From Rhodocyclaceae bacterium (GTDB taxonomy: Bacteria > Pseudomonadota > Gammaproteobacteria > Burkholderiales > Rhodocyclaceae), in NCBI GenBank assembly GCA_013388985.1, contig JACAEF010000024.1, forward strand, positions 8,370-72,369: a DNA stretch of 64,000 nt, read 5' to 3'. Of the stretch, positions 19,217 to 47,028 are shown in pieces. The translations under genes were made by a program, and so were the position numbers. A model generated the notes under the pieces. That model had not been told where the DNA came from and did no database searches. It saw nothing but the letters and a program-made list of their open reading frames with translations. How positions within the stretch are numbered: position 1 is the first letter of the stretch; every line of letters begins with the position of its first letter.

Positions 19217-19231
19217 AGCAGGTCTTTCCGA

Positions 19232-22991: not shown

Positions 22992-23046
22992 GCACAACGG
23001 CCGCCGGCAACCCGCACGGTGCGAAAATCCGCTCATGTGCCGGTGC

Positions 23047-23072: not shown

Positions 23073-23109
23073 TCATCGGTAAATCGAACCTTTCCATGAA
23101 AGGGGAACA

Positions 23110-24048: not shown

Positions 24049-25404
24049 TCATGGTTCGTTGTCTCTCGACCTGATGCCGAGACGGCGCAGCTTCTCCCAG
24101 AGCGTCTTGCGCGTGATGCCGAGCGCCTCGGCCGCTCGCGTCATGTGGTGATCGTGGCGTTCGAGCATCATCAGCAGATAATCGCGCTCGCAGGCCATCA
24201 GGTAATCGGCCAAGGATGCCGATGCAGGTGGCTGGCCGCCGGTACTGCTCGCCACGCCATCAGTGAAGAACGCTTCCGCTTCGAGCAGCGGCCCGCTGGA
24301 GAGGATGCAGGCGCGCTCGACGGCGTGCTTCAGCTCACGCACATTGCCAGGCCACGAGTAGCTCAGCAGCGCCTGTTCGGTGCGAGGGTCGATGCGCCGC
24401 ATGAGTTCGGGGTGGCGGCGGTTGAAGGCTTCGACGAAATGGCGCACGAACCAGCGGATGTCTTCCGGTCGCTCGCGCAACGGCGGAATGCGCAGATGGA
24501 TGACGTGTATGCGGTAGTAGAGGTCTTCGCGGAACTGACCGGCCTCGACCATCGCCTTGAGATCGCGGTGCGTCGCGCAGACGAGGCGGAAGTCGGCAGC
24601 GACCGGTTTCTCGCCGCCCAGCCGCGTCAGCTTTCTGTCCTGAAGCGTGCGCAGTAGCTTGGCCTGCATCGACAATGGCATTTCGCCGATCTCGTCGAGG
24701 AACAGGGTGCCTTGGTGGGCCTGCTCGAACATGCCGCGCTTGGCTTTGATCGCGCCGGTGAAGGCGCCTTTTTCGTAGCCGAACAGTTCGGCCTCCATCA
24801 GGGATTCCGGAATCGCGGCGCAGTTGACGGCGACGAATTCACCGACCGTGCCCACCGCATGCTGATGAAAAAGGCGCGCGACATGTTCCTTTCCGGAACC
24901 CGACTCGCCGGTGATCAGCAGGGTTTCGATATGGCGGGCGAGTCGGGGCAGGGCTTCGGCGATGCGCTGCATGGCATCGGAAATGCCGAGGCTGGCGTCA
25001 TTCGTGTCGCTTCCCGCCCCATAGCTGGCAGCAAGCCCCCGCACCTTTTGCACCAGCACATCGACATCGAAGGGTTTGGTGACATAGTCGGCGGCTCCGG
25101 CTTTGAGCAGTTCGACCGCACGGTCGATCGTGCCGTAAGCGGTCATGAACAGCCAGGGTGGCAGTCCGGAGAGTCGGCTACGTAGATCCAGGAAGAGCTC
25201 GCCGCCATCGCGGTCGGGCAGCCGGATGTCGCTGACGACGACGTTGAAGCGGTTCTCGCCGATGGCTTGCGCGGCCTCGGCCGCAGTGCGGCACCAGGCC
25301 GGCTCGAAGCCTTCGAGCTGGAAGAGCTGCAGTAGCGATTCGCCCATGATCTCGTCGTCCTCGATGAGACAGATACGGGGATGGAATTCATTGGCCTTGG
25401 GCAT
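24049..25404 (-). CDS. Sigma-54-dependent response regulator (NtrC/AioR-type), paralogue 1
   Basis: REC domain (ICLIEDD...SDIRLPD), AAA+ domain with GESGSGKE and the sigma-54 contact loop EKGAFTGA, C-terminal HTH. 451 aa. Confidence 0.85.
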
Positions 25405-26839
25405 AGGGAATCTCGATGTGAAAGCTCGTGCAGCCGGGTTCGCTATCGACGGTCAGACCGCCGTTGAGTTGCCGGACGATTTGATAGACCACCCACAGTC
25501 CCAATCCGTGTCCCTGGGCACGGCCGGTGGCAAAAGGCTCGAACAGATAGGTCATTTGTTCGTCGGGAATGTGCTGACCGTCGTTGCAGACGGCAAGACG
25601 CAGCATACCGTCGCTCGCGGCGATCTCGAGTTTGACGTGTCCTTGCTCATCGGCCGCCGCGATGGCATTCAAGAGCAGGTTGAGCAGAATTTGCCGCACC
25701 AAGGTCGCGGGCAGAGGCAGCTCGTCGGCAAGCCCGCCTGCCAGTGTGATCGTGACGGAACGGCTCTGGGCCTGAGCCTCGACGAGGATCAGGACGTCCT
25801 CGATGTCGGCGGGCTCGAGGGGGCGATCCTGGGTTTTCGTCTCGACCAGAAGGGCGGCGACGGTATTGCGGATTTGTTGCAGTCCGCGTTCGAGCCGCGC
25901 CATCGTCTGGTTGGCCAGCGCGTCGTCATTGCCGTGTCGCTGCCAGGTCTTGATGGCCGTCAGCATGCCGCCGAGCGGGTTGTTGATTTCATGAGCGATG
26001 CCTGCAGAGAGCCGGCCGACGGCCGCGAGACGCTCGGAGGCCAGCATTTGGGCTTCGAGTTCCTGCTTCTTCCTGAGCTCTGCGATCATGCGGCTGAAAG
26101 CCTGTCCGAGCTGGCCGATTTCGTCCTGATTGTCCGGCAGGGCAAGGCGGGTAGTCTCGTCGAGCCTGTCGGGTACATAGCGCATCGCCTCTGCAAGCGC
26201 CAGCAGCGGTGCCCCCGTGCTGCGCGCCCATACCCATGAGACCGGCATGATGACGACCAGCACGATCAGCGTCACCAGCATGGCGCGGCCGACCAGACCC
26301 AGGAAGCGCGGCAGGAAAGAAGTCTTGGAGTAGCCGAGGATGACGTGCCCGAGAATGACGCCATCGGCGACGAGCGGTGACATGACGAAATAAAGCGACG
26401 ATCCGGAAGGCTCGATGATCTGCTGTTCGAGCGCGGAATGATGGCTGATGCGCGCGCGCAGCTCGGCGTAGGCACCACCCAGTTCGGCGGGACTGCTGCC
26501 GATCGGAAATTTGCGCGGAGTCGTCGACACGAAGACACGGTAACTGGCATCGGTGACCAGCACGATGTTCGCTTGCAGTTCCGGTGAGGGCGGATTGGAC
26601 TCACGCGCCGACTGCAGGATTTCATAGGCCCGCCAGACGTCGTCGTGCAGGACCGGCGCCACGAGCGTGTTGGCCAGCACCTTGCCCAGGCTGCGCGCAT
26701 GCCCTTCGAGGTTTTGCCGCAGCTCGTCGTATTCTCTCGCTACGAGGGCGGTCGTCACCGCGATGGCGGTTCCCATGACGGCCGCCATCACGCGCAGCGG
26801 AATCTTCCAGCGCAGAGAGAGATCCGCAAGCCGGATCAT
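25388..26839 (-). CDS. Sensor histidine kinase (AioS/ArxS-like), paralogue 1
   Basis: Two TM helices flank a periplasmic domain of about 170 aa. HAMP-like linker, H-box AHEINNPL, HATPase N/G boxes (LLNLLLNAI, GHGLGLW). Start MIRLADL overlaps the upstream stop (ATGA). The longer ORF extension was rejected. Confidence 0.8.
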   Translation of the reverse strand: MIRLADLSLRWKIPLRVMAAVMGTAIAVTTALVAREYDELRQNLEGHARSLGKVLANTLVAPVLHDDVWRAYEILQSARESNPPSPELQANIVLVTDASYRVFVSTTPRKFPIGSSPAELGGAYAELRARISHHSALEQQIIEPSGSSLYFVMSPLVADGVILGHVILGYSKTSFLPRFLGLVGRAMLVTLIVLVVIMPVSWVWARSTGAPLLALAEAMRYVPDRLDETTRLALPDNQDEIGQLGQAFSRMIAELRKKQELEAQMLASERLAAVGRLSAGIAHEINNPLGGMLTAIKTWQRHGNDDALANQTMARLERGLQQIRNTVAALLVETKTQDRPLEPADIEDVLILVEAQAQSRSVTITLAGGLADELPLPATLVRQILLNLLLNAIAAADEQGHVKLEIAASDGMLRLAVCNDGQHIPDEQMTYLFEPFATGRAQGHGLGLWVVYQIVRQLNGGLTVDSEPGCTSFHIEIPYAQGQ

Positions 26840-27705
26840 AAGCGGCCTACTCTGACGGCCATGCGGGCGATCTCGTCGTATAACGCGGGCCTTCCCGTGA
26901 TGAAACCGTCGAGCCGCATCGATTCGAGCAATTCCATGCCCATCGGCTCTGTCGCCATCTCCAGGAGCGCGGACCGGAATAGATGCAATTGTGCCTCGGG
27001 GATGTCCGCGCGAGCTACGAAGGGCGGGTAGCCCAGATCCCCGGAGCGGCCGATGATGCGGGTGGCTGCGGTGAGTCGGGGATGGGTTTCTGACAAGGTT
27101 TCCCAAACATAGCCGTCGACGGCACCCCCATCCGCGAGACCGACGCCGACGGCCTCGACCACCTTGCGGTGCGCCCAGGTGAAAAAACTGCGCGCAAAAA
27201 ACAACGAGGGATTCTCGCCCTGCATGGTGAGCAGATACTGCGGATAAAGGTATCCGGAATTCGAATCGGGGTCGGAATAAGCGAATACCTTGCCGCGCAA
27301 ATCTGCCAATGAACGGCTCTGATCGTCGTCGGCAGGCACGATTAGGTATGACCGATAAAGCGGCCGCCCGCGCCACAAAGGCACGGCGACGAGTTTCAGC
27401 TGGCGCCGGTATCGGACATACGGGTAACCGCAAAGCCAGGCGAAATCGAGTTTGCCGCTCAGCAGTAACTCCACGATTTCGCGATAGCTGCCGCGTTGCA
27501 CGAAGATGACCTGACGTTCCAGCTTTTTTTCCAGCCAGGCACGCCAACGGGAAAGGAAACTGACCTGATCATCAAGAAAAACAGGGGTCAGGCCGACGCG
27601 CATCGGCGGCGCTTCGGCGCGCAGCGGCGATATCGGCATCGCGGCAAGCCCGCCAGCCGCTCGAAGGAATCTGCGTCGCGCAAGCCCGCGCTGATCTAGC
27701 TCCAT
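26836..27705 (-). CDS. Periplasmic PhnD-fold (phosphonate/oxyanion-binding) protein, AioX/ArxX-like, paralogue 1
   Basis: Twin-arginine-like signal (RRRFLRAAGGLAA) and PhnD-family pattern (RVGLTPVF...GKLDFAWLCGYPYV...YSDPDSNSGYL...DGGAVDGYVWE). First gene of the X-S-R operon. Confidence 0.75.
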   Translation of the reverse strand: MELDQRGLARRRFLRAAGGLAAMPISPLRAEAPPMRVGLTPVFLDDQVSFLSRWRAWLEKKLERQVIFVQRGSYREIVELLLSGKLDFAWLCGYPYVRYRRQLKLVAVPLWRGRPLYRSYLIVPADDDQSRSLADLRGKVFAYSDPDSNSGYLYPQYLLTMQGENPSLFFARSFFTWAHRKVVEAVGVGLADGGAVDGYVWETLSETHPRLTAATRIIGRSGDLGYPPFVARADIPEAQLHLFRSALLEMATEPMGMELLESMRLDGFITGRPALYDEIARMAVRVGRL

Positions 27706-27801
27706 GCAAGCAATGATAAGCAGCGCAAGCCCTGCTTGCCAGTCCGAGGTTTCTGACGTTACGTCGGTGTATCAGGTTGCATTGCAGCAAATCCGGGAAT
27801 T

Positions 27802-27817
27802 GTTACGCCCGCGTAAC
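27802..27817. promoter_or_regulatory. Perfect inverted repeat GTTACG-CCCG-CGTAAC (candidate enhancer-binding-protein site)
   Basis: Read directly, about 80 nt upstream of the -24/-12 element. Further palindromes lie at 27755..27765 (GACGTTACGTC) and 27725..27739 (GCAAGCcctGCTTGC). Confidence 0.35.
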
Positions 27818-27896
27818 GGCCCTCTTCATGCCATAGCCATAAAGAATCGGGCTAACTTGCGGTTCCTCAACGAAGAGTGACCGAAAACCCCTTTCC

Positions 27897-27912
27897 TGGC
27901 GCGATTGTTGCG
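27897..27912 (+). promoter_or_regulatory. Candidate sigma-54 promoter TGGCGC-N5-TTGCG for the B1-C1-A1 operon
   Basis: GG-N10-GC spacing is exact (consensus TGGCAC-N5-TTGCA). Lies 51 nt upstream of the ATG at 27963, next to a sigma-54-dependent regulator operon. Confidence 0.55.
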
Positions 27913-27962
27913 GATAAGCAGCACCGTTGAGCGCAGTGCATTCACGAGAGGAGGCAAGCCAG

Positions 27963-28673
27963 ATGAGTGAGGAACTGAGAGTCTCGCCGATCGAGACGCG
28001 CGAGGTGCCGGGCAAGCGGCGCTTTGCAATGGTGGTGGATGTCCGCCGTTGCATTGGCTGCATGGCCTGCCAGGTCGCCTGCAAGGCCGAATACGACACG
28101 CCGCTGGGCGTCAACCGCACCTGGGTGCCCTATAAGGTCGTGGGCAAGTATCCGAATGTCAAGAAACACTTTTTGCCGCGCTTGTGCAATCACTGCGACG
28201 ATCCGCCATGCGTGCGCAACTGCCCGGTCGAAGCGACCTTCAAGGTCGATGACGGCGGCTTCATCCTCCAGCGTTACGAACGTTGCATCGGCTGCCGCAG
28301 CTGCATGGCGGCCTGCCCATACAACGCCCGTTTCATGCTGCCAGCGCATCGCACCTACACCCCGATCACCAACGTCGTCGACAAGTGCACCTTCTGTTTC
28401 CATCGCGTCACCCAAAACCTGGTGCCGGCTTGCGTGCAGACCTGCATCGGCCGTTCGCGCGTGTTTGGCGATCTCAACGATCCGACCAGCGAAGTCTCAT
28501 ACCTGGTGGCGAAAAATGCGACCCAGGTGCTGCGTCCCGAACAGGGGACGAAGCCGCATGTGTTCTACATCGGCGCCGACCGCAATCAAACCGAGTTCGG
28601 CCGCGACGCCTATCGCCAGCCCGAAGTGATGGAACTGGAACGCGCAGCCTTCAAACGACACTTCAAGATCTGA
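27963..28673 (+). CDS. 4x[4Fe-4S] electron-transfer subunit of Mo-bisPGD oxidoreductase 1 (DmsB/PsrB/NrfC family), 'B1'
   Basis: Cys motifs CIGCMACQVACK, CNHCDDPPCVRNCP, CIGCRSCMAACP, CTFC...PACVQTC. RBS GAGAGGAGG upstream of the ATG at 27963. Confidence 0.85.
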   Translation: MSEELRVSPIETREVPGKRRFAMVVDVRRCIGCMACQVACKAEYDTPLGVNRTWVPYKVVGKYPNVKKHFLPRLCNHCDDPPCVRNCPVEATFKVDDGGFILQRYERCIGCRSCMAACPYNARFMLPAHRTYTPITNVVDKCTFCFHRVTQNLVPACVQTCIGRSRVFGDLNDPTSEVSYLVAKNATQVLRPEQGTKPHVFYIGADRNQTEFGRDAYRQPEVMELERAAFKRHFKI

Positions 28674-28686
28674 AAGGGGAGCCGTC

Positions 28687-29550
28687 ATGGGTGATTACGT
28701 CTGGTTTCACGATGTATCGTGGCATGCCACTTATGCCATCTATTTCTTCGTCATCGGCATCCTGGCCGGTTTGTCGTTCCTGTCCTATGGCTCTTGGATG
28801 ATGCCGGCGTTGCGGCCCTTGCGAGAAAAGGCTGCCTATGGGTCGCTGGGGCTGCTGGTGGTCGGCGGCTTGCTGTTGATCGCGGACCTTTCGCAACCGC
28901 TGCGTTTCCTGAACATCCTCAACCCGGCTTATCTGCATTTCACCTCGCCGCTGGCCTGGGGAGCGCTCAACATCGTCGCTTTCGGGGTCTGTTCGCTCCT
29001 CTACATCGTCGAGCTGAGGAAAGGTGAAGAGAGTGTGCGTGGCAAAACGCTGGCGATGGTCACTGCGCTATTGGCCTTGGGCCTGCCGATCTACACTGGC
29101 TATGACCTCTCGGTACACCAGTCGCGGCCGATGTGGAACACGCCGATCATGCCGGTGCTTTTCGTCGCCCTTGCGATTGCTTCGGGTTCCGCGGTCGGAA
29201 CGCTGCTCGCAGGAGGCAATCAGGCGGCGCAGAAGATACTGCGGGAATTCATGCTGTGGTCGACGGCGGCAGTCGGCGTGATGCTGATCGGCATTCTCGG
29301 CACGACCAATTACGGCGGTTCGGCCGAAGAGCTGACCTTCATGATCCTGACCACCGGCACGATGGGCATGCTCTTCATCGGCGTCGGTTTCCTGGCTGGC
29401 ACCGCTGCACCGGTCGCCATGCTTTTCTTTGCCCACCTCAAGGAGCGAACGACCGGGCTGTTCCTCGCTGCGATCCTGATTCTGCTGGGCAGTGCCGCCC
29501 TGCGCTATGCGCTGTTGATGGGGCCGCAACAACTGCAAACCCTCTACTGA
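28687..29550 (+). CDS. NrfD/PsrC-family integral membrane quinol-interacting subunit, 'C1'
   Basis: 287 aa, about 8 predicted TM helices. Sits between the Fe-S and catalytic subunits. Confidence 0.75.
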   Translation: MGDYVWFHDVSWHATYAIYFFVIGILAGLSFLSYGSWMMPALRPLREKAAYGSLGLLVVGGLLLIADLSQPLRFLNILNPAYLHFTSPLAWGALNIVAFGVCSLLYIVELRKGEESVRGKTLAMVTALLALGLPIYTGYDLSVHQSRPMWNTPIMPVLFVALAIASGSAVGTLLAGGNQAAQKILREFMLWSTAAVGVMLIGILGTTNYGGSAEELTFMILTTGTMGMLFIGVGFLAGTAAPVAMLFFAHLKERTTGLFLAAILILLGSAALRYALLMGPQQLQTLY

Positions 29551-29571
29551 CCGATTCGAGGAGAGAGAAAC

Positions 29572-32211
29572 ATGGAAATGCCGAAAATTACGCGCCGCAC
29601 CTTCCTCAAGGTCAGCGCTACGACCGGCGCCGCGGCTGCGGCTGCGCCGCGTCTGCTCAACGCCATGGAAAACGAGCTGGGCGGCAAGGACTTCGCACCG
29701 GTGTCCGGCATCGAGCGCAAAGCCATCCCAATCAACTGCCATGTCTGCAACATCCAGGATGGCGCCATTGCCTACGTCGAAAACGATCGCGTCGTGAAAC
29801 TCGAAGGCAATCCCGAACACGTTTCGACACGCGGGCGGTTGTGCGCGAAAGGTAACTCGGGCATGTGGTACAGCTATGATCCCGACCGTATCCTTTATCC
29901 ATTGAAGCGTGTCGGCGCGCGTGGCGAAGGCAAGTGGAAGCGCATCACCTGGGATGAGGCGCTCACCGAGGTGGCGGCCAAGCTCGATGCCGCGCTCAAG
30001 GAAGACCCCAACACCATCATGCTGAAATGGGGGCGCAATCGCACTGGCGGCACATTGGAGCGCTTCATGAAGACGCTCGGTTCGGCGACGGTGCTCAACC
30101 ATACCTCCGTGTGCGAATCATCGAAGAAGATCGGCATGGAGCCAACCTGGGGACCGGACATCGAGACTCCCGATTTCGCCAATACCCGGTATGTGCTCAA
30201 CTTCGGTTCGAACGTGCTGGAAGCATCCTATTTCCATAACCCGCTTTCGCAGCGCATCGCCGATGGGCGTATCGACAATCGCATGAAGATCGTCACTTTT
30301 GATGTGCGCCTGTCGAATACCGCGGGCTTTTCGGACGAGTGGATTCCGGTGCATCCGGCCACCGACGGCGCCGTGGCGCTGGCGATGGGACATGTCATCT
30401 TACGTGAGAACTTGCAGGATTCCGATTTCATCAACACCTGGACCAACGTCACGGTCGATGAGCTGAAGGAGCATTACAAGCAATACACGCCGGAATGGGC
30501 CGAGAAGATCTCCGGCGTGCCGGCGGCGACGATCGAACGCATCGCACGCGAGTTTGCCACCACGAAGCCAGCGACATTATTCACCTATCGTGGCCCGGCC
30601 AAGCATCTCTATGGCTCCTACAACGAAAAAGCGTGCATGATGCTGCCGATCATGACCGGCAACGTCGAGAAGAAAGGCGGCTATTGCCTGCCGCGCGGCA
30701 TGGGCTGGCCGCAGCCCAAGCCTGAGCCTCCGAAACCGGCGAAGGGTTCCTACCTCGCCGACCATCCGGATTATCCGCTCGCGGCGCACAAGGTTTCCCA
30801 TCTCGTACCGTTCTGGATTGCCGATGGCAAGCAGAAGATCAATGTCTATTTCACTTATCAGGACAACCCGGTCTATACCAACCCGGGATCGATGGCCGTG
30901 TGGGGCAAGCTCCTCAAGGATGAGAAACTGATTCCCTTCTTCGTCTCGATGAGCTCGCACATGGGCGAGGAAACGGCGCTGGCCGACATCATCCTGCCCG
31001 ACTGTCCGTATCTCGAGCGTTGGGAGCCCGAATCGATGCCCAACTCGTTGTGGCCGTGGTTGGGCATCCGCCAGCCGGTGCACAAGTCGCTCGGCGAATC
31101 GCGCGAGAACCGCGTGCTGTTGCGCGACATCATCTGGAAGCTCGACCCGGACGGCAAGCGTGGCATGAAGCAGTACTGGGACTTCAAGGATGGCGAGGAT
31201 TACATGCGCCATCATTTCGACAACATCCCGGGCCTCAAGGAAGCCGGCGGCCTCGACTTCCTGAAAAAACATGGGGTCTGGCCGATCTATGGCAAGCTCG
31301 ATCCGAAGACCGGCAAGATCGTCGACAAGACCGGCCGCGAGATCAGGGCCGAGTATGGGTTGCACATGAAGGAACTGTCGGAAGCCGACATGGTCGGCGC
31401 CACGGTGGCCAAGGATGGCCTCATCACCAAGAACGGCAAGGCGATCGGCATCCGTCGCAACGGCAAGAACTATGTCGGCTTTCCGACTGCCAACCGCCTG
31501 ATCAACGTGCGCGTCGACGAGTGGGCCGAATACGGCTTCAACCCGATGCCGACCTTCAAGCGTATCCCATGGCACGAGACGATGAAGGACGACGAACTGA
31601 TCCTCACCACCTTCAAGCTCAACGTGCATAAACAGTCGCGGACGGCCGCGGTGAAGTGGCTGGCGGAGATCGCGCACAGCAATCCGATGTGGATCAACAG
31701 CGAGACCGCAAAGAAGATCGGTGTCAAGACGGGCGATTTGGTGCGAGTCGAATCCAAAGTCGGTTATCTGGTCACCAAGGCTTATGTCACCGAGGGCATC
31801 CATCCGCGCGCGGTGGCGATTCCGACCGGCTTCGGCCACTGGGAATATGGCCGTCTGGCAACCCTGAAACTCAAGGAGAAGAAGGGTGAAGCCAGCCATG
31901 GTCAGGATGACCCCGACCTCAACAACGTCTGGTGGGACGACAAGGGGGTGCATCCGAACAACATCATTCCGGCGGTTGTCGACCCGATCGGCGGCTCGCA
32001 AGGCTGGTATGACACGGTCGTCAAGGTCACCAAGGCCGGACCGAACGACAAGTATGGCGATACGCAGGGTTACTGGGACAAGCACTACGAGGCCTACAAG
32101 GAGACCTTGCGTTACGCCTATACCGGCGATCTGCACCGCAAGATGCACCCGGAGATGGCCAGCTGGGCGGGACCCGAGAGCGTCAAGCCCAAGGTGCATG
32201 GCGGGCACTGA
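29572..32211 (+). CDS. Tat-exported Mo-bisPGD oxidoreductase catalytic subunit 1 (Psr/Phs/Ttr/Arr super-clade, substrate unassigned), 'A1'
   Basis: Tat signal ITRRTFLKVSATTGAAAAAA. N-terminal cluster motif C56-x2-C59-x3-D63-x27-C91. KRVGARGEGKWKRITWDEAL. Probable Mo-ligand Cys in NHTSVCESS. 879 aa. Confidence 0.85.
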   Translation: MEMPKITRRTFLKVSATTGAAAAAAPRLLNAMENELGGKDFAPVSGIERKAIPINCHVCNIQDGAIAYVENDRVVKLEGNPEHVSTRGRLCAKGNSGMWYSYDPDRILYPLKRVGARGEGKWKRITWDEALTEVAAKLDAALKEDPNTIMLKWGRNRTGGTLERFMKTLGSATVLNHTSVCESSKKIGMEPTWGPDIETPDFANTRYVLNFGSNVLEASYFHNPLSQRIADGRIDNRMKIVTFDVRLSNTAGFSDEWIPVHPATDGAVALAMGHVILRENLQDSDFINTWTNVTVDELKEHYKQYTPEWAEKISGVPAATIERIAREFATTKPATLFTYRGPAKHLYGSYNEKACMMLPIMTGNVEKKGGYCLPRGMGWPQPKPEPPKPAKGSYLADHPDYPLAAHKVSHLVPFWIADGKQKINVYFTYQDNPVYTNPGSMAVWGKLLKDEKLIPFFVSMSSHMGEETALADIILPDCPYLERWEPESMPNSLWPWLGIRQPVHKSLGESRENRVLLRDIIWKLDPDGKRGMKQYWDFKDGEDYMRHHFDNIPGLKEAGGLDFLKKHGVWPIYGKLDPKTGKIVDKTGREIRAEYGLHMKELSEADMVGATVAKDGLITKNGKAIGIRRNGKNYVGFPTANRLINVRVDEWAEYGFNPMPTFKRIPWHETMKDDELILTTFKLNVHKQSRTAAVKWLAEIAHSNPMWINSETAKKIGVKTGDLVRVESKVGYLVTKAYVTEGIHPRAVAIPTGFGHWEYGRLATLKLKEKKGEASHGQDDPDLNNVWWDDKGVHPNNIIPAVVDPIGGSQGWYDTVVKVTKAGPNDKYGDTQGYWDKHYEAYKETLRYAYTGDLHRKMHPEMASWAGPESVKPKVHGGH

Positions 32212-32339
32212 TTGGAGATGCGGGGATTCGTCCGTCGTGGTCCTGTCGCGGCGGACGGGATTTGAAGGTCCGGCATTCATGCGGACCATTTTTCGGGGTT
32301 CGACATGCTCAGCAGTATTTTCGAAATCGAGGACGAAGG

Positions 32340-32365
32340 GAAAATCGGCGCTGGCGAGACGGCAG
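32340..32365 (-). repeat. Dispersed intergenic repeat, copy 6 (CTGCCGTCTCGCCAGCGCCGATTTTC on minus strand)
   Basis: Read directly. Lies between the A1 stop (32211) and the preferred TorD-like start (32389). Confidence 0.8.
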
Positions 32366-32388
32366 TCATTCCTGCATCGCCAGCGGCG

Positions 32389-33587: not shown

Positions 33588-33593
33588 TTTCTC

Positions 33594-34286: not shown

Positions 34287-34290
34287 GACC

Positions 34291-34746: not shown

Positions 34747-34751
34747 GTCAC

Positions 34752-35837: not shown

Positions 35838-35853
35838 CAAGGAGTTGGAAGCG

Positions 35854-36255: not shown

Positions 36256-36281
36256 GTGCCGTCTCACCAGCGCCGACTTTG
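36256..36281 (+). repeat. Dispersed intergenic repeat, copy 7 (GTGCCGTCTCACCAGCGCCGACTTTG)
   Basis: Read directly. Exactly fills the 27-nt gap between the convergent stops of the two oxidoreductase operons. Confidence 0.8.
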
Positions 36282-36282
36282 C

Positions 36283-38249: not shown

Positions 38250-38306
38250 GGCGAGAAGGCCGATGCGCCAGAGAAGGATGGCGCACCGGCAAACGGCTGA
38301 ATACTA

Positions 38307-39512: not shown

Positions 39513-39523
39513 GAGGATTCTCC

Positions 39524-40276: not shown

Positions 40277-40287
40277 GATGCGCTCCT

Positions 40288-43077
40288 TTAGACTCGTTCC
40301 ACACTGACCAGGCCGCTGTGGTAGCAGGCCAGGCCAGACAAGGGTTCCGACAGATTCTCGGTGACTTCGTTGGTGCTGCCGGAGGGTAGGCGGTCCTTGG
40401 CCTCGGCCCAGCGGCCTTGCGCCCAGTGGCCATGGATCATCGGCAGTACGACGGTATCGGGCCGAGTGGTGTGCGTCACGCGCGCGCGCACGCGAATCTC
40501 ACCGATCTTGTTCTTGATCTTGACGATGTCCCCGTCTCGGATGCCACGCTTGGCCGCGGCTTCGGGATGGATTTCGAGAAACACTTCGCGTTTGCCGCCC
40601 TGTACCGGCTGGATCATGGCCGTGACATGCGGCAGATTGGCACTGCGCCCTTCCGCCTGCCCGGCGAGCTTGGGAGAGACGAAATGCAGATCACCATTGC
40701 CGCCGTGCCTGGGTTCGACCCATTGCGGGAAGGGCGCGCGTTCGGCGGGCAGACCGAATCTTTCTTGAACATAGTCGGCATGATGTTCGAGTTCCGTGAC
40801 CTTGAGCTCGAACTTGCCCGTCGGGGTCGGCATCACCTTTTCCTTGACTTCGGCCGCGGTGAGGATCTTGTTGTAGCCCTTGCCATCCCATTCGTAAAAC
40901 ACCCCATCCTTTTGCAGGTAGGCATAGGGCTTGCGGTACCAGACCCCCTTCTGCTTGAAGGTCTCGAAGTCGACGACCCCGTTGTCGCCGGGTTTTTCCT
41001 TGAAGCCTTCGCACATCCACTTGATGATGTTTTCGGTATTGTCGATCTTCTTGTAGTACTCGGCGGTCGGTCCTTTGATGCGCTTGCCGATTTCGATGAT
41101 CACATCGCCGAAGACCTTGGTGTCGTACAACGGCTTGATCGCTGGTGTGCGGATCATCGAGATCGGATAACCCTCGTAAGGATAGGTATCGGCGATTTGC
41201 AAGCGTTCGAGGTAGGTGTGATCGGGAAGGATCAGATCGGCGAACCTGTTGGTTTCGCCAGGAAAGGGCGAGGTGTCGATGACGAAAACTTCGCGCCACA
41301 TCTCCTCCCATTTGGTGCAATCGGGTCCAGAGAACACCGCGCCGGTCATATAGATGATCGCCGTGTCGAGCTTGTAGGGCTCGCCCTTCAGATGGTTGAT
41401 GGCGATCTCCTGCATCATGTTCTTCGCCAGCGGCCATTTTTTCGTCTTGACCATGTCGATGCGCGGCTGTTTTTTCCACGGCCCATCCTTGGCGTAATCG
41501 TCCTGGTAGTCTTCGACCTTGATCGGCAGCTTTGCCCAGGCCGTCTTCATCTGATAGCCGCGCAACCCACCCTTGGCGAACATGTTGCCGGTCAAGGCAT
41601 TGAGCGCATGGATCGCCATACCGTTATAGACGCCGTTGGTGTGCGCCGAGGCGCCGCGTTCGAACAGAGCGACCGCCGGCTTGGTCGTCGCGAATTCGCG
41701 CGCCACTGTGATGATGTCCTTGGCGGAGACGCCGGAGATTTCCTCGGCCCATTCCGGGGTGCGATCTTTCAGTTCGATGTTCCACCACTCGATCAGGCCG
41801 TGCGTCCATTTTTCCTGGAACAGCGGTTGGCCGACGACGGGGACGGGCTCGGGTTTTCTGTCTTTTTCGAGCATGGCACGCTGCTCGGCAATCAGCTTGG
41901 CCTTCGCATCGGCTTCGTCCTGCTTCTTCAGCGCCTCGGCAAGTTTCTTTTCGAGCGCCGCCTTCGCATCTCCTTTGGCCTCTTTGACCGCTTTCTTCAG
42001 CTTGTCGATCTCGGCCAGCATCTTGACCTTTTCTTCAGCCGCCTTTTGCGCCGCCGCGTCCTTCTTCGCGGCGGCTTCGGCCTTGGCGGCTTTCCAGGCG
42101 TCGACGTCTTCCTGATTTACCGTGAGCGGGATCGCTGCGCCTGTCTTGAAGCGATTGATGCCATCGACGAAGTCGCCGACGAAATGCTTGTCCCATAGCC
42201 CTTCGGTGAGGATCACATGCGCCATCGCCAGCGCCAGCGCACCGTCGCGGCCAGGTTTGACGAGTAGCAGGCGGTCGGCGGAGGACCCTGTCGTATTGAG
42301 ATGCACATCGACCACCGTGACCTTGGTCTTCGGCGATTTGCTGCGCATCAGGCCCCATTTCTGCATGTTGGGATTGAAGGGGCGGAAGGCTTCGAGGAAG
42401 CCTGCGCCGAAGACGAGCAGGTAGTTGGTGTTGGCATAATCGTAGGCGCTGTAGGCATGATGCCCGTCCATGATGTGCTTGACGGTTTCGGAAGCATCCG
42501 AGCACATCGAAGAATGGCCGAGGTTGTAGTTCGGCGTGCCGTAGAGTTTGCCGAATTCGGTGAGCAGTCCGACGTCGGAATAGCCCCAGCCGCGCCCGGT
42601 GAGCGTGGCGAAGCGGTGCGATTCACCTTTTTCACGCAGTGCGTTCAGGCGGCCAGCGACGATGTCGAGGGCTTCGTCCCAGGAGATCGGCACGAATTTC
42701 GGATCCTCGTTTCGACCTTTCTTGGGGTTGGTGCGTTTCATCGGCCCCTTGATGCGGTCGGCGTCGTAGGTCAAATACACGCCATAATGCCCCTTCGGGC
42801 AGAGCTTGCCATTGGAGAGGGGATTGTCGAGAGTGCCATAGATCGCGTGGATGCGGCCGTTGGTCGTATAGACGTCGATGCCGCAGCGTGCCGGGCATTG
42901 GTGGCAGAAACTCTTGGTGACCACTGTCTGTCCCGTGGTCGTCGGTGCCTCGGCTTGCGCCTTCTGCACGCTGATCAACTGACTGCCCAGTCCGATGCTG
43001 CCGGCCGCACCTGCAACACCCGTCGCTTGGAGAAACCTGCGGCGTGTCAGTTTCGGATTGAAGAGGGAATCGCTCAT
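40288..43077 (-). CDS. arxA: Tat-exported Mo-bisPGD oxidoreductase catalytic subunit 2, ArxA-like (carries TGRGWG motif), with ~100-aa K/A/E-rich insertion, 'A2'
   Basis: Tat signal LTRRRFLQATGVAGAAG. Canonical C58-x2-C61-x3-C65-x26-C92. TGRGWG at aa 160-165 (nt 42583..42600). Probable Mo-ligand Cys in GHSSMCSD. RBS GAGGAG. Start at Met30 of the ORF, giving 929 aa. Confidence 0.6.
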   Translation of the reverse strand: MSDSLFNPKLTRRRFLQATGVAGAAGSIGLGSQLISVQKAQAEAPTTTGQTVVTKSFCHQCPARCGIDVYTTNGRIHAIYGTLDNPLSNGKLCPKGHYGVYLTYDADRIKGPMKRTNPKKGRNEDPKFVPISWDEALDIVAGRLNALREKGESHRFATLTGRGWGYSDVGLLTEFGKLYGTPNYNLGHSSMCSDASETVKHIMDGHHAYSAYDYANTNYLLVFGAGFLEAFRPFNPNMQKWGLMRSKSPKTKVTVVDVHLNTTGSSADRLLLVKPGRDGALALAMAHVILTEGLWDKHFVGDFVDGINRFKTGAAIPLTVNQEDVDAWKAAKAEAAAKKDAAAQKAAEEKVKMLAEIDKLKKAVKEAKGDAKAALEKKLAEALKKQDEADAKAKLIAEQRAMLEKDRKPEPVPVVGQPLFQEKWTHGLIEWWNIELKDRTPEWAEEISGVSAKDIITVAREFATTKPAVALFERGASAHTNGVYNGMAIHALNALTGNMFAKGGLRGYQMKTAWAKLPIKVEDYQDDYAKDGPWKKQPRIDMVKTKKWPLAKNMMQEIAINHLKGEPYKLDTAIIYMTGAVFSGPDCTKWEEMWREVFVIDTSPFPGETNRFADLILPDHTYLERLQIADTYPYEGYPISMIRTPAIKPLYDTKVFGDVIIEIGKRIKGPTAEYYKKIDNTENIIKWMCEGFKEKPGDNGVVDFETFKQKGVWYRKPYAYLQKDGVFYEWDGKGYNKILTAAEVKEKVMPTPTGKFELKVTELEHHADYVQERFGLPAERAPFPQWVEPRHGGNGDLHFVSPKLAGQAEGRSANLPHVTAMIQPVQGGKREVFLEIHPEAAAKRGIRDGDIVKIKNKIGEIRVRARVTHTTRPDTVVLPMIHGHWAQGRWAEAKDRLPSGSTNEVTENLSEPLSGLACYHSGLVSVERV

Positions 43078-43160
43078 CGTGTTTTCTCCTCGTGGATAAG
43101 ATCGATGCTGATCAGGTCTGCGCACCTTCCTGGGGCGCAAACAACCCATGCCGTTACTCT

Positions 43161-43175
43161 GCAAACTCTGTTCCT
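43161..43175 (-). promoter_or_regulatory. Weak candidate sigma-54 promoter (minus strand AGGAAC-N5-TTGCA) for the A2 operon
   Basis: GG-N10-GC spacing is exact on the minus strand. The -12 TTGCA is good and the -24 is degenerate. Lies about 85 nt upstream of the ATG at 43077. Confidence 0.35.
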
Positions 43176-43346
43176 GAGCGGCACGCTCGGTTATCGTCCG
43201 GAGGACGTTCGTATTTTTTTCATCAACGACAGCAAAGACTTATCGCCTCTGAGGCAAAGGCCGCGATCATTTGCGCATGCGCGCGATAGCTTTGGGAAAG
43301 CCTAGGCCTAAAATAGCCGTTACCGTTTTTCGACAAAGGCCGGACC

Positions 43347-44234
43347 ATGACGAGGGGCGCGTTACCGCTTGAAGACGGCGCGCGTAGGCGCTGGCTGAAG
43401 CAGCTTGCCATCGGCGCGTTGACAGCAGGGATGGGGAAGGCGGTCGGGGCCGCCGCCCCGGGCACGATCCGGGTGGGCATGACGCCCGCCTTCCTCAATG
43501 ACCAGTATTCACTGTTGGCCGACTGGCGTGCTTATCTCCAGGCCAAGCTGGGTATGCCGGTGGAGTTCGTGCAACGTGATCGCTACCGTGAGACGATGGA
43601 CTTGCTCCATCTCGGCAAACTGGATTTCGCCTGGCTGTGTGATTACCCCTTCGTTTTTCTCAAAGACCTGGTCAGACTGCTAGTGGTGCCGCTCAATCAG
43701 GGCAGACCCTATTACCGCTCGTTACTGCTGGTTGGGGCGGCAGACCGCAGACGCAACAGCATGGCCGACCTGGCGGGCGGCGTGTTCGCTTTTGCCGATC
43801 CCTACTCGAATACCGGTTATCTCGCCCCGCGTTACCGGATTCGCGAACTGGGCCGCGATCCCAATACCTTTTTTCGCCAGACATACTTCACCTGGTCGCA
43901 CCGCAAGGTGATCGAAGCCGTGAGCAAAGGCTTTGCGGATGGCGGCGCGGTCGACAGTTTCGTCTGGGATACCCTGGAAAAGGTGCGTCCCGATGTCACC
44001 CAGGGGGCGCGCATCATCGAGCGCTCGCCGGAATATGCCTTTCCACCGTTTGCTGCGCATCGCGCGGTGCCGGCCGAAATGTTCGAGCGTATGCAGAAGG
44101 TGCTGATCGGCATGTCGCAGGACGAATCCGGCCGTTTGTTGCTGACGCGCCTCAATCTCGATGGCTTCATCGTCGGTCGGCGCCAGATGTATGACAGCGT
44201 GGCGAAAATGATGGCGGCATTCGGCGAGATCTGA
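43347..44234 (+). CDS. Periplasmic PhnD-fold oxyanion-binding protein, AioX/ArxX-like, paralogue 2
   Basis: Twin-arginine-like signal (ARRRWLKQLAIGALTAG). Aligns by eye with 26836..27705 over its whole length (GKLDFAWLCDYPF, FFTWSHRKVIEAV, ADGGAVDSFVWDTL). Confidence 0.75.
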   Translation: MTRGALPLEDGARRRWLKQLAIGALTAGMGKAVGAAAPGTIRVGMTPAFLNDQYSLLADWRAYLQAKLGMPVEFVQRDRYRETMDLLHLGKLDFAWLCDYPFVFLKDLVRLLVVPLNQGRPYYRSLLLVGAADRRRNSMADLAGGVFAFADPYSNTGYLAPRYRIRELGRDPNTFFRQTYFTWSHRKVIEAVSKGFADGGAVDSFVWDTLEKVRPDVTQGARIIERSPEYAFPPFAAHRAVPAEMFERMQKVLIGMSQDESGRLLLTRLNLDGFIVGRRQMYDSVAKMMAAFGEI

Positions 44235-45694
44235 TGCGGCGGTTTTTCGATCTCAGCCTACGTCACAAACTGCCTCTGTGGGGGAGCGGGCTGATCGTCG
44301 CCGCGACGCTGCTGGTCTCCGCCGGCCTGATGTATCGTGCCTACGCCGACTTGAAACACGATGTCATCGTCAGTTCCTCTGGGCTGGGACGAACACTGGC
44401 GAAGCCATTGTTTCAGGCTCTGCTCCACGACGATCTGTGGCGCGCCATCGAAATCATCAACTCGCCGTTGCAAGGGGGAAGCCATGATGCGCCAATGCAG
44501 GCGAGCGTGATTTTCATCCTCGATCCGGCGCTGAAAGTCAGGGCTTCGACAGCGCCGCGCAGCATGCCGCTCGATGCCGAGCTCGACAGCTTGGGGCAAG
44601 ACTATCGTCTCCTGGCGGCCGCGCTCGAGACTGCCGATCCGCAACAAAGCCACACCTTCGAATTCGCCGAATCGGATTACCTGCATGTCACCACGCCGCT
44701 GGCGGAGGAGGGCGGCCATCTCGGCACGCTCGTCATCACTCATTCCAAAAACGATTTCCTGCCACGCTTTTCCAGCATTGCGCTCGAAGGCGCCGGTATG
44801 GGTCTGCTGGCGCTCGCGATCCTGCTACCCATCAATTGGTATTGGGGGCGGCGCATGGCCGAACCGCTCGTGCAGTTGGCCAGTAATATGGCTTTGATGG
44901 TCAAGGGGGCGCCGGCGAATCTGCACCCCGAACTGTATGCCTACCACGACGAACTCGGCCAGCTCTTCAATGCCTACCGGCAGGCGGCTGAGGAAATCAG
45001 CGCCAAGGCGGCGCTCGAACGCGAGATGCTGCGTTCCGAGCGTCTGGCGGCGATAGGCAGGCTGGCCGCCGGCATCGCCCATGAAGTGAACAATCCGCTG
45101 ACCGGCATGCTGATCGCGCTGGACAATCTCAAGCAACGCAAGCCGGACCATGGCATCGATGCCAAGCTCATGCGCACGCTCGAATTCCTCGAGCGCGGGC
45201 TGGCGCAGATCTCTGAAACCATCGGTGCGCTGCTCGTCGAGTCGCGCGTGCAATTGCGCCCCCTCGAACGCCATGATTTCGAGGATGTCCGTACCTTGAT
45301 CGAACCCCAAGCCGCGCGCAGGTCGTTGCGGCTCGATTGGCAGGTTGCGGTCGCGGATCCGATCCCCGTCGCCGCTGGACAAGTGCGCCAGATTCTGATC
45401 AACCTGTTGCTGAACGCGGTCCAAGCCACCGCCAACGGCGGCCGGATCCGCTTCTCCGCCGAGAAACGCAATGACGGATTGCTGCTGGACGTGACCAATG
45501 AAGGTGTTCCGCCCCCTCCGCAGGTGCTCGCCCATATCTTTGAGCCCTTCGTCTCCGGGCGGGAAGGAGGGCATGGTCTCGGCCTGTGGGTGACTTACCA
45601 GACCGTCCAGCAATTGGGCGGGACGATCGTCATCGAAACGCCCGAGGGTCAGGTAACCTTCCGCGTCCACCTGCCAATCAAGGAAAACGGATGA
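44234..45694 (+). CDS. Sensor histidine kinase (AioS/ArxS-like), paralogue 2
   Basis: Two TM helices plus a periplasmic domain, H-box AHEVNNPL, LINLLLNAV, GHGLGLW. Start overlaps the upstream stop (TGATG). Confidence 0.8.
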   Translation: MRRFFDLSLRHKLPLWGSGLIVAATLLVSAGLMYRAYADLKHDVIVSSSGLGRTLAKPLFQALLHDDLWRAIEIINSPLQGGSHDAPMQASVIFILDPALKVRASTAPRSMPLDAELDSLGQDYRLLAAALETADPQQSHTFEFAESDYLHVTTPLAEEGGHLGTLVITHSKNDFLPRFSSIALEGAGMGLLALAILLPINWYWGRRMAEPLVQLASNMALMVKGAPANLHPELYAYHDELGQLFNAYRQAAEEISAKAALEREMLRSERLAAIGRLAAGIAHEVNNPLTGMLIALDNLKQRKPDHGIDAKLMRTLEFLERGLAQISETIGALLVESRVQLRPLERHDFEDVRTLIEPQAARRSLRLDWQVAVADPIPVAAGQVRQILINLLLNAVQATANGGRIRFSAEKRNDGLLLDVTNEGVPPPPQVLAHIFEPFVSGREGGHGLGLWVTYQTVQQLGGTIVIETPEGQVTFRVHLPIKENG

Positions 45695-47028
45695 GAGCCG
45701 GAATCTGTCTGATCGAAGACGATCCTTTCGTCGGTAGCCCGCTTTCGGAGCGGCTGGAAATGGACGGCTATGTCTGTGACTGGTTCCAGACGGGGGCCGA
45801 AGCACTGGCGGCGTTGCGCAAGAACCGTTATCAACTGGCCATCAGCGACATCCGCTTGCCCGACATCAGTGGCGAAGAACTGTTCGAGACCTTGCGCCAG
45901 GAAGAAATTTATCTGCCGCCCTTTCTCTTCATCACCGGGCATGGCACCATCGACCAGGCCGTCCGGCTGCTGAAGCTCGGCGCCCATGATTACATCACCA
46001 AGCCATTCGACCCCAGCGCGCTGATGGCAAAAGTGCGCAGCCTGTGCGACAGCCGGCTTGCCATCGCCGCTACCCAGAGCCTGGGAATTTCTACGGCCAT
46101 GCGCACGATCGAGGCCTTGCTGCCGCGGCTGGCCACCAGTCGCAGCCCAGTGCTGATCACAGGCGAATCGGGCGTTGGCAAGGAAGAGGTGGCGCGTCAT
46201 TTACACCGCTTGGGCGATCCCACGGGCAATAAGCCCTTCATCGCCGTCAATTGCGGTGCGATTCCCGAAACCTTGATCGAATCGGAACTCTTCGGTCACG
46301 AGAAGGGCAGTTTCACCGGGGCGGTGAAGGCGCGCAGCGGCGTGTTCGAACAGGCCGACGGCGGCACGCTCTTCCTCGACGAAATCGGTGAAATGCCCTT
46401 GCCGATGCAAGTCAAGTTGCTGCGGGCGATCCAGGACAGCGCGATCGTGCCGGTGGGTGGCGAGATGCCCCGACCCGTGAATATCCGCCTGGTATGCGCG
46501 ACGCATCGCGATCTCAAGGCGATGGTGGAAAACGGCGAATTCCGTGAAGATCTGTACTACCGCATCCACGTCATCCACTTGCCGATACCTCCGCTCAGGG
46601 AACGGCAGGACGACATTCTCTGGCTCACGGAGCGCTTCCTTGCCGAAATCGGACGGCGCGAACGTCGGTTGCTCTCGATCTCCGCGCGCGCCGCGAGCGC
46701 GATGGTGAATTATCCTTGGCCGGGCAACATCCGCGAATTGCGTCATTGCCTCGAACGTGCCGCGGTTCTTTCAGCAAGCGATTGTTTCGAGACGGCAGCG
46801 CTCTTCGGCGGGGCAACCGCGCTGGCGGAGGCCGCCAATCAGTCGATGGACCGTCAGCCGCTCGGCGAATATATGGAAGCCTGCGAACGCGATTACATCA
46901 ATCGCGCCCTGGGCGAAGCCGGAGGCAAAATCAGCCGGGCGGCGGTGCTGCTCGGCATCAGCCGCAAGAATCTGTGGCAGAAAATGCGCAGACTGGGCAT
47001 CAGCGCCAATAGCGGCGAGGATGCCTGA
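45691..47028 (+). CDS. Sigma-54-dependent response regulator, paralogue 2
   Basis: MRAGICLIEDD...[46 protein letters not shown]-terminal HTH. ATG overlaps the kinase stop (ATGA). Confidence 0.85.
   Translation: MRAGICLIEDDPFVGSPLSERLEMDGYVCDWFQTGAEALAALRKNRYQLAISDIRLPDISGEELFETLRQEEIYLPPFLFITGHGTIDQAVRLLKLGAHDYITKPFDPSALMAKVRSLCDSRLAIAATQSLGISTAMRTIEALLPRLATSRSPVLITGESGVGKEEVARHLHRLGDPTGNKPFIAVNCGAIPETLIESELFGHEKGSFTGAVKARSGVFEQADGGTLFLDEIGEMPLPMQVKLLRAIQDSAIVPVGGEMPRPVNIRLVCATHRDLKAMVENGEFREDLYYRIHVIHLPIPPLRERQDDILWLTERFLAEIGRRERRLLSISARAASAMVNYPWPGNIRELRHCLERAAVLSASDCFETAALFGGATALAEAANQSMDRQPLGEYMEACERDYINRALGEAGGKISRAAVLLGISRKNLWQKMRRLGISANSGEDA

Follow-up and report, generated by a model that had tools for sequence, protein, structure and literature searches.

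A conserved twelve-gene, sensor-regulated molybdoenzyme module lies tail to tail with an arx cluster in a Rhodocyclaceae bacterium

The region between positions 24049 and 47028 of a 64,000-nt stretch of DNA from a Rhodocyclaceae bacterium (contig JACAEF010000024.1, positions 8,370 to 72,369; hereafter the window, whose numbering is used throughout) contains 20 genes. They form two tail-to-tail operons and two divergent triads, each triad encoding a sensor protein (X), a histidine kinase (HK or S) and a sigma-54-dependent response regulator (RR or R). The left half (24049–36255, 12 genes) is a separate, tightly conserved module that encodes a complex iron–sulfur molybdoenzyme regulated by such an XSR triad; we found no prior description of it among 8 million open-access papers and preprints, although one in a subscription journal is possible. 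The right half (36283–47028) is an arx cluster of an already known kind. We consider it fairly probable that the region as a whole joins this known arx cluster to a separate, arsenic-linked module built on the same logic, and that their juxtaposition is specific to this lineage. The module is presented below through its gene content, its conservation as a unit, its sensor pocket, its promoter architecture and its ars neighbourhood, all of which are observed directly.

An initial annotation of the window had described a mirror-image layout with operons ending 27 nt apart, the gap being exactly one copy of a dispersed repeat. Listing and translating the open reading frames (ORFs) over 24049–47028 reproduced this layout, its coordinates and the repeat copy in the gap (36256–36282), where no terminator-like hairpin or intrinsic terminator was found. 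The genes of the left half are the following.

24049–25404, minus strand: RR1, AioR/ArxR-like response regulator (best NCBIfam matches of the AtoC/NtrC type; Pfam Response_reg, Sigma54_activat and HTH_8)
25388–26839, minus strand: HK1, membrane sensor histidine kinase with H-box AHEINNPL (HAMP, HisKA, HATPase_c)
26836–27705, minus strand: X1, exported AioX-subfamily binding protein with a PhnD fold (243 bits to AioX, 6esv)
27963–28673, plus strand: B1, four-cluster ferredoxin subunit with four Cys motifs (best NCBIfam match TtrB, 216 bits, cutoff 416)
28687–29550, plus strand: C1, NrfD/PsrC-type membrane anchor (Pfam NrfD 115 bits, NrfD_2 55 bits; TtrC 62 bits, cutoff 314)
29572–32211, plus strand: A1, catalytic subunit with molybdenum bis-pyranopterin guanine dinucleotide (Mo-bisPGD), exported by twin-arginine translocation (Tat), of an unnamed subfamily (below every curated cutoff)
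32305–33147, plus strand: D1 (TorD1), TorD/NarJ-family chaperone (Pfam Nitrate_red_del 57 bits)
33144–33587, plus strand: E1, DUF309-like (DUF309 40.6 bits in a divergent orthologue; synteny)
33594–34286, plus strand: F1, HisA/HisF-like (His_biosynth, borderline in orthologues: 23.5 bits, cutoff 23.6)
34291–34746, plus strand: G1, exported protein with a rhodanese fold but without the catalytic Cys (alignment, AlphaFold2, Foldseek)
34752–35837, plus strand: H1, NapF/ArxB2-like polyferredoxin lacking a signal sequence (Pfam Fer4 families, NapF match)
35854–36255, plus strand: I1, conserved last gene of the module (kept in nearly all loci)

Relatives of A1 were searched in species-representative genomes, and a tblastn synteny survey covered 80 loci. 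A protein identical to A1 is encoded on 18 public contigs, and relatives are present in 162 species-representative genomes of Beta- and Gammaproteobacteria. The twelve-gene arrangement RR-HK-X <> B-C-A-D-E-F-G-H-I is syntenic in about 80 species loci, within which A1 orthologues are 74–91% identical and 345 of 879 residues are invariant. The hosts belong to the Rhodocyclales, Comamonadaceae, Gallionellaceae, Sulfuricella, Thiobacillus, Hydrogenophilus, Chromatiaceae and Thiohalomonadaceae, and the module is carried by cultured strains of Sulfuricystis, Azoarcus (sp. KH32C), Aromatoleum, Thauera and Hydrogenophilus. RefSeq names of its genes are all generic.

A mirrored arx operon beside the left module occurs in the window's organism only among the surveyed loci. 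An arx-type triad adjoins the module in about seven species and three arrangements (the window's organism and six others, which show two other orientations), and in the remaining surveyed loci arx is absent within 10 kb of the module. The proven Arx organism Sulfuricystis thermophila M52 has the module next to dnaA-dnaN-gyrB, and none of the genes up to 10 kb away belong to arx; module and arx coexist both in this strain and in the window's organism. Because the left module lies without nearby arx in most loci, M52 included, the mirror arrangement is a lineage-specific juxtaposition within an arsenic/molybdenum island and not an integrated two-enzyme machine. The idea of an integrated dual module, raised when the window was first annotated, does not agree with the 80 other loci, which have the left module alone or arranged otherwise with respect to arx-type triads.

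Pairwise comparison of the two halves gave identities of 48% for X1/X2, 38% for HK1/HK2, 54% for RR1/RR2, 36% for B1/B2 and 23% for H1 and the polyferredoxin of the right half (polyFd2). A1 and A2 can be aligned over their N-terminal 300 residues only (33% identity), and no significant pairwise similarity was detected for C1/C2 or TorD1/TorD2. Judged from these identities, strong paralogy is limited to the regulatory triads, which are true paralogues. The initial annotation had assigned a paralogue to nearly every component; this holds for the triads (38–54%) but not for the C and TorD pairs, and for A1/A2 it extends no further than the N-terminal part. The shared motifs that it quoted are all found in the translations, save that X2 has YFTW where X1 has FFTW. 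Its view that the two enzymes are clearly different was right, and so was its remark on the cluster motif: the FS0 motif is C-x2-C-x3-D in A1 and C-x2-C-x3-C in A2. Both A subunits carry twin-arginine signals (RRTFLK in A1, RRRFLQ in A2).

The two triads are of the AioXSR/ArxXSR type, as had been proposed from their architecture. X1 scores 243 bits against the AioX structure 6esv and 132 bits against ArrX, X2 scores 204 bits against AioX, and both response regulators are sigma-54 enhancer-binding proteins. All pocket residues described for AioX (Y88, C106, Y131, S161, S163, H192 and D210) are present in X1 together with the V-F-L lid loop (Badilla et al. 2018, PMC5908839). In 54 X1 orthologues adjoining the module, the pocket residues and a V-F/I-L lid loop are essentially invariant. 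ArxX (X2) keeps the pocket with the replacements S163T and V56A. The lid loop and the overall similarity point to X1 being the arsenite form of these sensors, and we infer that its inducer is arsenite or the chemically similar antimonite. A proposal that the paired triads reflect two substrates or a substrate/product couple finds no support in the sensors, since in both X1 and X2 the pocket and lid loop are of the arsenite (AioX) type and not of the ArrX type that goes with arsenate. The 289-aa form of X1, starting at 27705, supplies a twin-arginine signal (RRRFLR) that a 267-aa gene call lacks.

Between X1 and B1 we observe the elements of a sigma-54-dependent promoter.

27758–27773: upstream activator site, degenerate copy GTTACGTCGGTGTATC
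27802–27817: upstream activator site, exact palindrome GTTACGCCCGCGTAAC
27897–27912, plus strand: sigma-54 -24/-12 element TGGCGCGATTGTTGCG (TGGCGC-N5-TTGCG, near-consensus), 51 nt upstream of the B1 start codon

The exact palindrome (GTTAC-N6-GTAAC) is unique in the window and lies about 95 nt upstream of the sigma-54 element. It agrees with the AioR motif as published, GT[TC][AC][CG]-N6-[GCT][GTA]AAC, at the motif's outer positions (Shi et al. 2017, PMC5335332). GTTAC-N6-GTAAC recurs in 49 of 77 orthologous X–B intergenic regions; its density there is 1.79 per kb, about 640 times the 0.0028 per kb of the remaining locus sequence. A TGG-N9-TGC element of like form precedes B1 in most orthologous loci. 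The left module shares with the AioXSR and ArxXSR systems a free PhnD-fold protein of the periplasm that has the AioX pocket residues and lid loop, a membrane kinase and a sigma-54 enhancer-binding regulator, as well as a -24/-12 promoter and a GTTAC-N6-GTAAC site with AioR half-sites. It differs from them in its target, which is not AioBA or ArxAB but a Psr/Phs-like enzyme with six extra genes.

A1 was compared with known families by curated NCBIfam cutoffs and pairwise bit scores. None of A1, B1 and C1 reached the curated cutoff of any NCBIfam model (Ttr, Phs, Arr, Dms, Qrc and others): A1 scores 360 bits against PhsA (cutoff 694), 184 against ArrA (1600) and 142 against TtrA (1750), and 35 bits against the AioA model. 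Among PDB structures it matches PsrA best (207 bits), followed by ArrA (171 bits). Curated cutoffs are not reached by the sister lineages P0272, P0121, P0124 and P0133 either. In a search of 1.84 billion cluster representatives, the nearest other lineages were 42–53% identical to A1 and unnamed or generically named. A1-related lineages score 400–900 bits among themselves against 100–150 bits with ArxA, and the Joint Genome Institute (JGI) labels relatives of A1 as thiosulfate/polysulfide reductase. By these scores, A1 is an unnamed Psr/Phs-like subfamily with a Ttr-like gene order, outside every curated clade.

Several assignments to named enzymes were considered and rejected. Similarity to the Arx oxidases covers the N-terminal 300 residues only (33% to ArxA), and the AioA score is 35 bits. 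The order ttrBCA is found, but TtrA, TtrB (216 of 416 bits) and TtrC (62 of 314 bits) all fall short and the fused binding domain of TtrS is missing. For Phs/Psr, the scores against PhsA and the PsrA structure are accompanied by a B-C-A rather than an A-B-C order, and for Arr the low score goes with WGRN in place of (R/K)GRY. NaoABC, an Sb(III) oxidase that depends on nitrate (PMC11521347), is unrelated, being NapA-like with a Rieske subunit, and so is the cytoplasmic Soe-like candidate of Thioalkalivibrio (PMC6620896).

The FS0 motif of A1 (window 29737–29760, residues 56–63) has Asp in place of the third Cys, and this is at least 95% conserved in 76 orthologues. The Asp is common to some A1-related lineages, while others keep Cys; its presence implies that the FS0 cluster of A1 would be Asp-ligated or otherwise atypical. 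At the site where ArrA has RGRY, ArxA has GRGWG and PsrA has GHG, A1 has WGRN (GRNR motif), retaining the Gly-Arg of RGRY. In the alignment with ArrA, it also keeps the His-x3-Cys motif and a Lys five residues past the Cys. Some of the retained positions are reported to contact arsenate in the ArrA structure, and we count the retained residues towards a link to arsenic. The Mo ligand is probably the Cys in NHTSVCESSKK. An AlphaFold2 model of A1 built on a shallow alignment has a mean pLDDT (predicted local distance difference test) of 56.

The left module has in common with the Ttr, Psr and Phs systems a Mo-bisPGD enzyme of three subunits that is exported by Tat and includes a four-cluster ferredoxin and a membrane anchor of the NrfD type. 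It shares the B-C-A order and a PhnD-fold sensing element with Ttr, and with Psr/Phs the best sequence matches of A1 (PhsA, PsrA). Against this, its subunits lie far under the Ttr and Phs cutoffs, its sensor is a separate AioX-like protein and not fused to the kinase, its regulator is sigma-54 dependent, its FS0 motif carries the Asp, and its neighbours are ars genes. With the Arr system and ArrXSR of Chrysiogenes arsenatis, A1 shares the overall class, the Gly-Arg and the H-x3-C Mo-ligand motif, but it lacks (R/K)GRY and triad 1 is of the oxidase type (sigma-54, AioX-like).

The recurrent neighbours of the left module in the 80 loci are molybdenum cofactor (Moco) genes (moaA, mobB, moaE, moaC) and ars genes. 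Ars-type neighbours (ACR3, ArsR, the low-molecular-weight-phosphatase ArsC, ArsP-type permeases) are found in 23 of the 80 loci and in many lineages; in 14 loci the neighbour is ACR3, ArsC or ArsR. On the megaplasmid pAZKH of Azoarcus sp. KH32C (738 kb; NC_020548.1 51015–68244), an arsR-arsC-arsD-arsA-acr3 cluster is separated from the module by one hypothetical gene (about 0.7 kb). In a sister lineage, P0272, whose catalytic subunit shares 48% identity with A1, the B-C-A-TorD-polyferredoxin core is the same, and it goes with a NarL-type regulator and an ArrX-like binding protein that scores 207 bits against ArrX and 136 bits against AioX. One such locus was recorded in a metagenome.

Contig ERZ27236928 k141_160182, 4138–13282: ArrX-like protein, HisKA_3 kinase, NarL-type regulator, B-C-A-TorD-polyferredoxin-TatA, MoeA/MobB/MobA/TatC

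An ArrX-like protein with a NarL-type regulator is the arrXSR architecture (PMC5908839), and the locus is a candidate non-Arr arsenate reductase cluster. By analogy, the sister lineage suggests an oxidase/reductase split like that of Arx and Arr inside a second enzyme family.

From its regulator and surroundings, we infer that A1 acts on arsenic or antimony species, most likely oxidizing As(III) in parallel to Arx. In the mechanism that we propose, X1, HK1 and RR1 would act through the GTTAC-N6-GTAAC site and the -24/-12 promoter to switch on B1-C1-A1. These would form a periplasm-facing, NrfD-anchored, quinone-coupled Mo-bisPGD enzyme, followed by six conserved accessory genes. Most likely, both triads of the region would respond to periplasmic As(III), and possibly Sb(III), each driving its own molybdoenzyme. 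That the left module oxidizes arsenite or antimonite is a reading we advance tentatively. It is likewise possible, if somewhat doubtful, that the module represents a third, phylogenetically separate family of arsenite/antimonite oxidoreductases under AioXSR-like control, present in at least 160 species, with the ArrX-linked sister as its reductive counterpart.

Several observations weigh against an arsenite- or antimonite-oxidizing function. Our view of the A1 substrate derives only from the regulator and the neighbouring genes. By sequence, A1 is nearest to polysulfide and thiosulfate reductases, and B1 and C1 are nearest to TtrB and TtrC. The operon includes the rhodanese-fold protein G1, and rhodanese, DsrE or flavocytochrome c sulfide dehydrogenase (FccAB) genes lie nearby in some genomes, a setting that would also suit a substrate of the sulfur or thio-arsenic kind. 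The arsenate binder ArrX has the pocket residues of AioX too, the Cys among them, and these residues do not by themselves fix the ligand. About 70% of the surveyed loci have no ars gene within 10 kb, and the related lineage P0133 is paired with a binding protein of the phosphonate type and not of the arsenic type.

These observations bear first on the alternative that the left module is a sulfur-compound reductase (for tetrathionate, thiosulfate or polysulfide), in which the PhnD-like sensor would detect a sulfur oxyanion as the fused TtrS domain does and the ars genes would be coincidental. We regard this as unlikely. The B-C-A order is that of ttrBCA, with best matches to TtrB (B1), TtrC (C1) and PhsA and PsrA (A1), yet the Ttr and Phs scores are far under the cutoffs and HK1 matches TtrS in the kinase core only (70/750). 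A rhodanese-fold protein lies in the operon and a periplasmic tandem rhodanese upstream of it, but G1 lacks the catalytic Cys of active rhodaneses. FccAB stands beside the module in M52, as do an ArsR–rhodanese fusion and DsrE in Aromatoleum bremense; across the 80-locus survey, however, sulfur genes are not recurrent neighbours, whereas ars and Moco genes are. The JGI naming of A1 relatives agrees with a sulfur substrate, and tetrathionate reduction by a Psr homologue is reported from Shewanella (PMC12949373). The score of X1 against AioX, its full arsenite pocket and the AioR-type regulator site argue in the other direction.

It is also improbable, in our judgement, that the module acts on another metalloid or on mixed species (antimonite, thioarsenate or thioarsenite, methylarsenite, selenite), with X1 as a specificity variant of AioX. 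This would explain its coexistence with Arx, which in the window's organism and in M52 argues against simple redundancy. The X1 pocket residues are nevertheless identical to those of AioX, with no visible change of specificity. ArsP-type permease genes are frequent neighbours, G1 joins a rhodanese fold to an invariant Cys-Cys, and the island contains weak matches of a selenium flavour (a YqeB-like gene, a rhodanese resembling ExtH and, for X1, a 98-bit match to TIGR04553). The left module is carried by Hydrogenophaga taeniospiralis, a species of which one strain is reported to oxidize Sb(III); the published Sb(III) oxidase, NaoABC, is nonetheless the unrelated NapA-like/Rieske enzyme mentioned above.

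A non-Arr respiratory arsenate or antimonate reductase, forming a substrate/product couple with Arx, is very unlikely: X1 is nearer to AioX than to ArrX and has the V-F-L lid loop that ArrX lacks, the sigma-54 regulator is of the type found with oxidases and not the ArrR type, and WGRN replaces (R/K)GRY, even though A1 keeps the Gly-Arg, His and Lys positions of the ArrA alignment. Moreover, the majority of the host taxa respire nitrate or oxygen with ubiquinone, and reducing arsenate with quinol is unfavourable for such organisms. Such a function would agree with the arsenic neighbourhood and with the sister lineage, whose ArrX-like sensor and NarL-type regulator are those of arrXSR (PMC5908839), and a non-Arr arsenate reductase lineage, of the separate TtrA/SrdA family, is already recognized (PMC10100899).

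The remaining left-module genes share the conservation described above. B1 has a GGAGG ribosome-binding site 8 nt upstream, and by a crude hydropathy scan HK1 would have a periplasmic loop between hydrophobic segments, and C1 about eight such segments. The true start of D1 is probably the ATG at 32389, because the N-terminus of the longer ORF (32305–32388) overlaps a minus-strand copy of the dispersed repeat (32345–32364). F1 has a weak precomputed match in Aromatoleum bremense, and no family match was obtained for I1 in library scans. H1 is 23–27% identical to ArxB2 and ends in a CxxC...CxxC tail. Zinc-ribbon-like tails of this form end ArxD (37449–37620), H1 (35740–35837) and ArxB2 (36283–36400), and D1 has a single CxxC.

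G1 matches no known family above threshold, its Pfam Rhodanese matches being sub-threshold. Its AlphaFold2 core has a pLDDT of about 89 or higher, and nearly all Foldseek matches of this core are rhodanese domains, with template-modelling (TM) scores of 0.6–0.68. In the alignment, Asp occupies the position of the catalytic Cys, and the motifs Pro-Cys-Cys-x-Ile-Asp-x-Arg and, at the C-terminus, F-x-I-P-x-N-T-C-E-S-G are invariant. An ArsD-like As(III) site made of the Cys-Cys pair and a further Cys was considered and set aside; the pair is missing in divergent gammaproteobacterial orthologues.

The right half of the region contains the following features.

36283–37452, minus strand: polyFd2, here ArxB2, polyferredoxin (Fer4 families; downstream of arxD as in strain M52, PMC6549141)
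37449–38249, minus strand: TorD2, here ArxD, TorD-family chaperone (Pfam Nitrate_red_del 43.7 bits)
38307–39512, minus strand: C2, here ArxC, NrfD-type membrane anchor (Pfam NrfD 84.8 bits)
39524–40276, minus strand: B2, here ArxB, four-cluster ferredoxin subunit (ArrB 160 bits, QrcC 178 bits)
40288–43077, minus strand: A2, here ArxA, catalytic subunit of a group 3 type anaerobic arsenite oxidase (TGRGWG, insertion, identity to the skB26 protein)
43160–43175, minus strand: tentative candidate sigma-54 element AGGAACAGAGTTTGCA upstream of arxA, read from the sequence
43347–44234, plus strand: X2, here ArxX, periplasmic arsenite-type binding protein (AioX 204 bits, ArrX 128 bits)
44234–45694, plus strand: HK2, here ArxS, sensor histidine kinase with H-box AHEVNNPL (translation, family matches)
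45691–47028, plus strand: RR2, here ArxR, sigma-54-dependent response regulator (NtrC/AtoC-type matches)

A2 carries TGRGWG at residue 161, and XGRGWG is the motif that tells ArxA from ArrA, which has (R/K)GRY (PMC6549141). It also contains a 99-aa insertion rich in Ala, Lys and Glu (residues 319–417, window 41827–42123); a long insertion is a trait of the group 3, low-salt type of ArxA (PMC6549141). The best curated match of A2 is ArrA (430 bits, cutoff 1600) and its best PDB match is the ArrA structure 6cz7 (375 bits), as expected for an ArxA, because ArxA has no model of its own. Over 100% of its length, A2 is 61% identical to the product of a gene, published under the name arxA (PMC6397845), that Sulfuricella denitrificans skB26 carries on its plasmid pSCD. 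That plasmid has the order arxRSX <> arxB2-A-B-C-D-moaA, and its arx intergenic region carries TGGATCGGTTCTTGCA and GTTAC-N6-GTGAC. As this site resembles the one upstream of B1, cross-talk between triads 1 and 2 is conceivable.

The gene order A2-B2-C2-D2-polyFd2 with a divergent arxXSR, a sigma-54-type ArxR and an AioX-family ArxX has the same genes in the same order as the group 3 Arx systems of Sulfuricystis thermophila M52 and its relatives (Ospino, Kojima and Fukui 2019, PMC6549141). M52 likewise has arxB2 downstream of arxD and a long insertion in ArxA. Shared features further include the XGRGWG motif, the Tat signal, the C-x2-C-x3-C FS0 motif and the divergent arxXSR. There is no difference of substance; the sigma-54 element before arxA in the window is a weaker match (GGAAC...TTGCA). 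Given the motif, the insertion, the M52-like gene order and the identity to the skB26 protein, the right half is on sequence grounds a canonical group 3 arx cluster, already known, of which this is one more example. The statement that the combined arrangement was not a described system therefore fails for operon 2 and triad 2. Only A2 of the two catalytic subunits falls in a characterized clade (ArxA); A1 falls in none of the curated ones.

In the arx half, in keeping with the established biology of arx systems, ArxX would sense periplasmic arsenite and ArxS would phosphorylate ArxR, which would activate the sigma-54 promoter. ArxAB, exported by Tat and anchored by ArxC, would oxidize arsenite and pass electrons to the quinone pool, and ArxD and ArxB2 would serve maturation.

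The two operons lie in a 32.5 kb block that splits ftsH (13306–15171) from folP-glmM (47731–49934) and has a GC content of 0.585–0.625, against 0.64–0.69 outside. ftsH and folP-glmM are neighbours in many proteobacteria and are contiguous in E. coli. Besides the operons, the block (15271–24039 and 47118–47564) contains a ModE-like gene, a YqeB-like Moco maturation gene, a molybdate/tungstate-type ABC transporter, a Mg-type P-ATPase, an exported periplasmic tandem rhodanese and an OsmC-like gene. The block looks like a molybdenum/arsenic island. In Aromatoleum bremense, the left module is near ftsH and a P-type ATPase. In M52 (AP019373.1), FccAB genes downstream of the module are followed by another Mo enzyme cluster, which encodes a catalytic subunit of 860 aa along with a ferredoxin, a dihaem cytochrome c and a TorD-like protein; considered as a relative of A1 and A2, this enzyme is only about 24% identical and was set aside as unrelated.

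The dispersed repeat TGCCGTNNCNCCAGCGCCGA, with the full form (G)TGCCGTNNCNCCAGCGCCGA(C/T)TTT, is 20–27 nt long and occurs in 11 copies in the 64 kb, where 0.06 are expected.

Repeat copies, minus-strand copies marked (-): 7170, 12204(-), 12947(-), 15231, 19192, 23048, 32345(-), 36257, 47074, 49948, 61826

Copies lie nearly always 2–60 nt past a stop codon, in the orientation of the gene and followed by a T-rich tail, and some stand at module junctions in the ftsH–folP block. The repeat has no stable hairpin (z-scores from -1.0 to +1.3) and no Rfam match. An Rfam search over the region found no Moco riboswitch or other RNA except three tRNAs, which are tandem genes on the plus strand at 52304–52570 (64–70 bits).

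Should the left module act on arsenic or antimony, gene surveys of arsenite oxidation under anoxia, which count only aioA and arxA, would overlook a contributor that is widespread in aquifers, paddy soils and treatment plants, with some 160 or more host species among the Beta- and Gammaproteobacteria of groundwater, sediment and wastewater. Metagenome surveys would then be counting the module as phsA or psrA and mis-assigning it to sulfur cycling. The same reading would bear on how Arx strains that lack Aio, such as M52, oxidize arsenite under microaerobic and nitrate-reducing conditions. Some of the host genera are genetically tractable, and the module, being tightly defined and present in cultured strains, is open to direct test.

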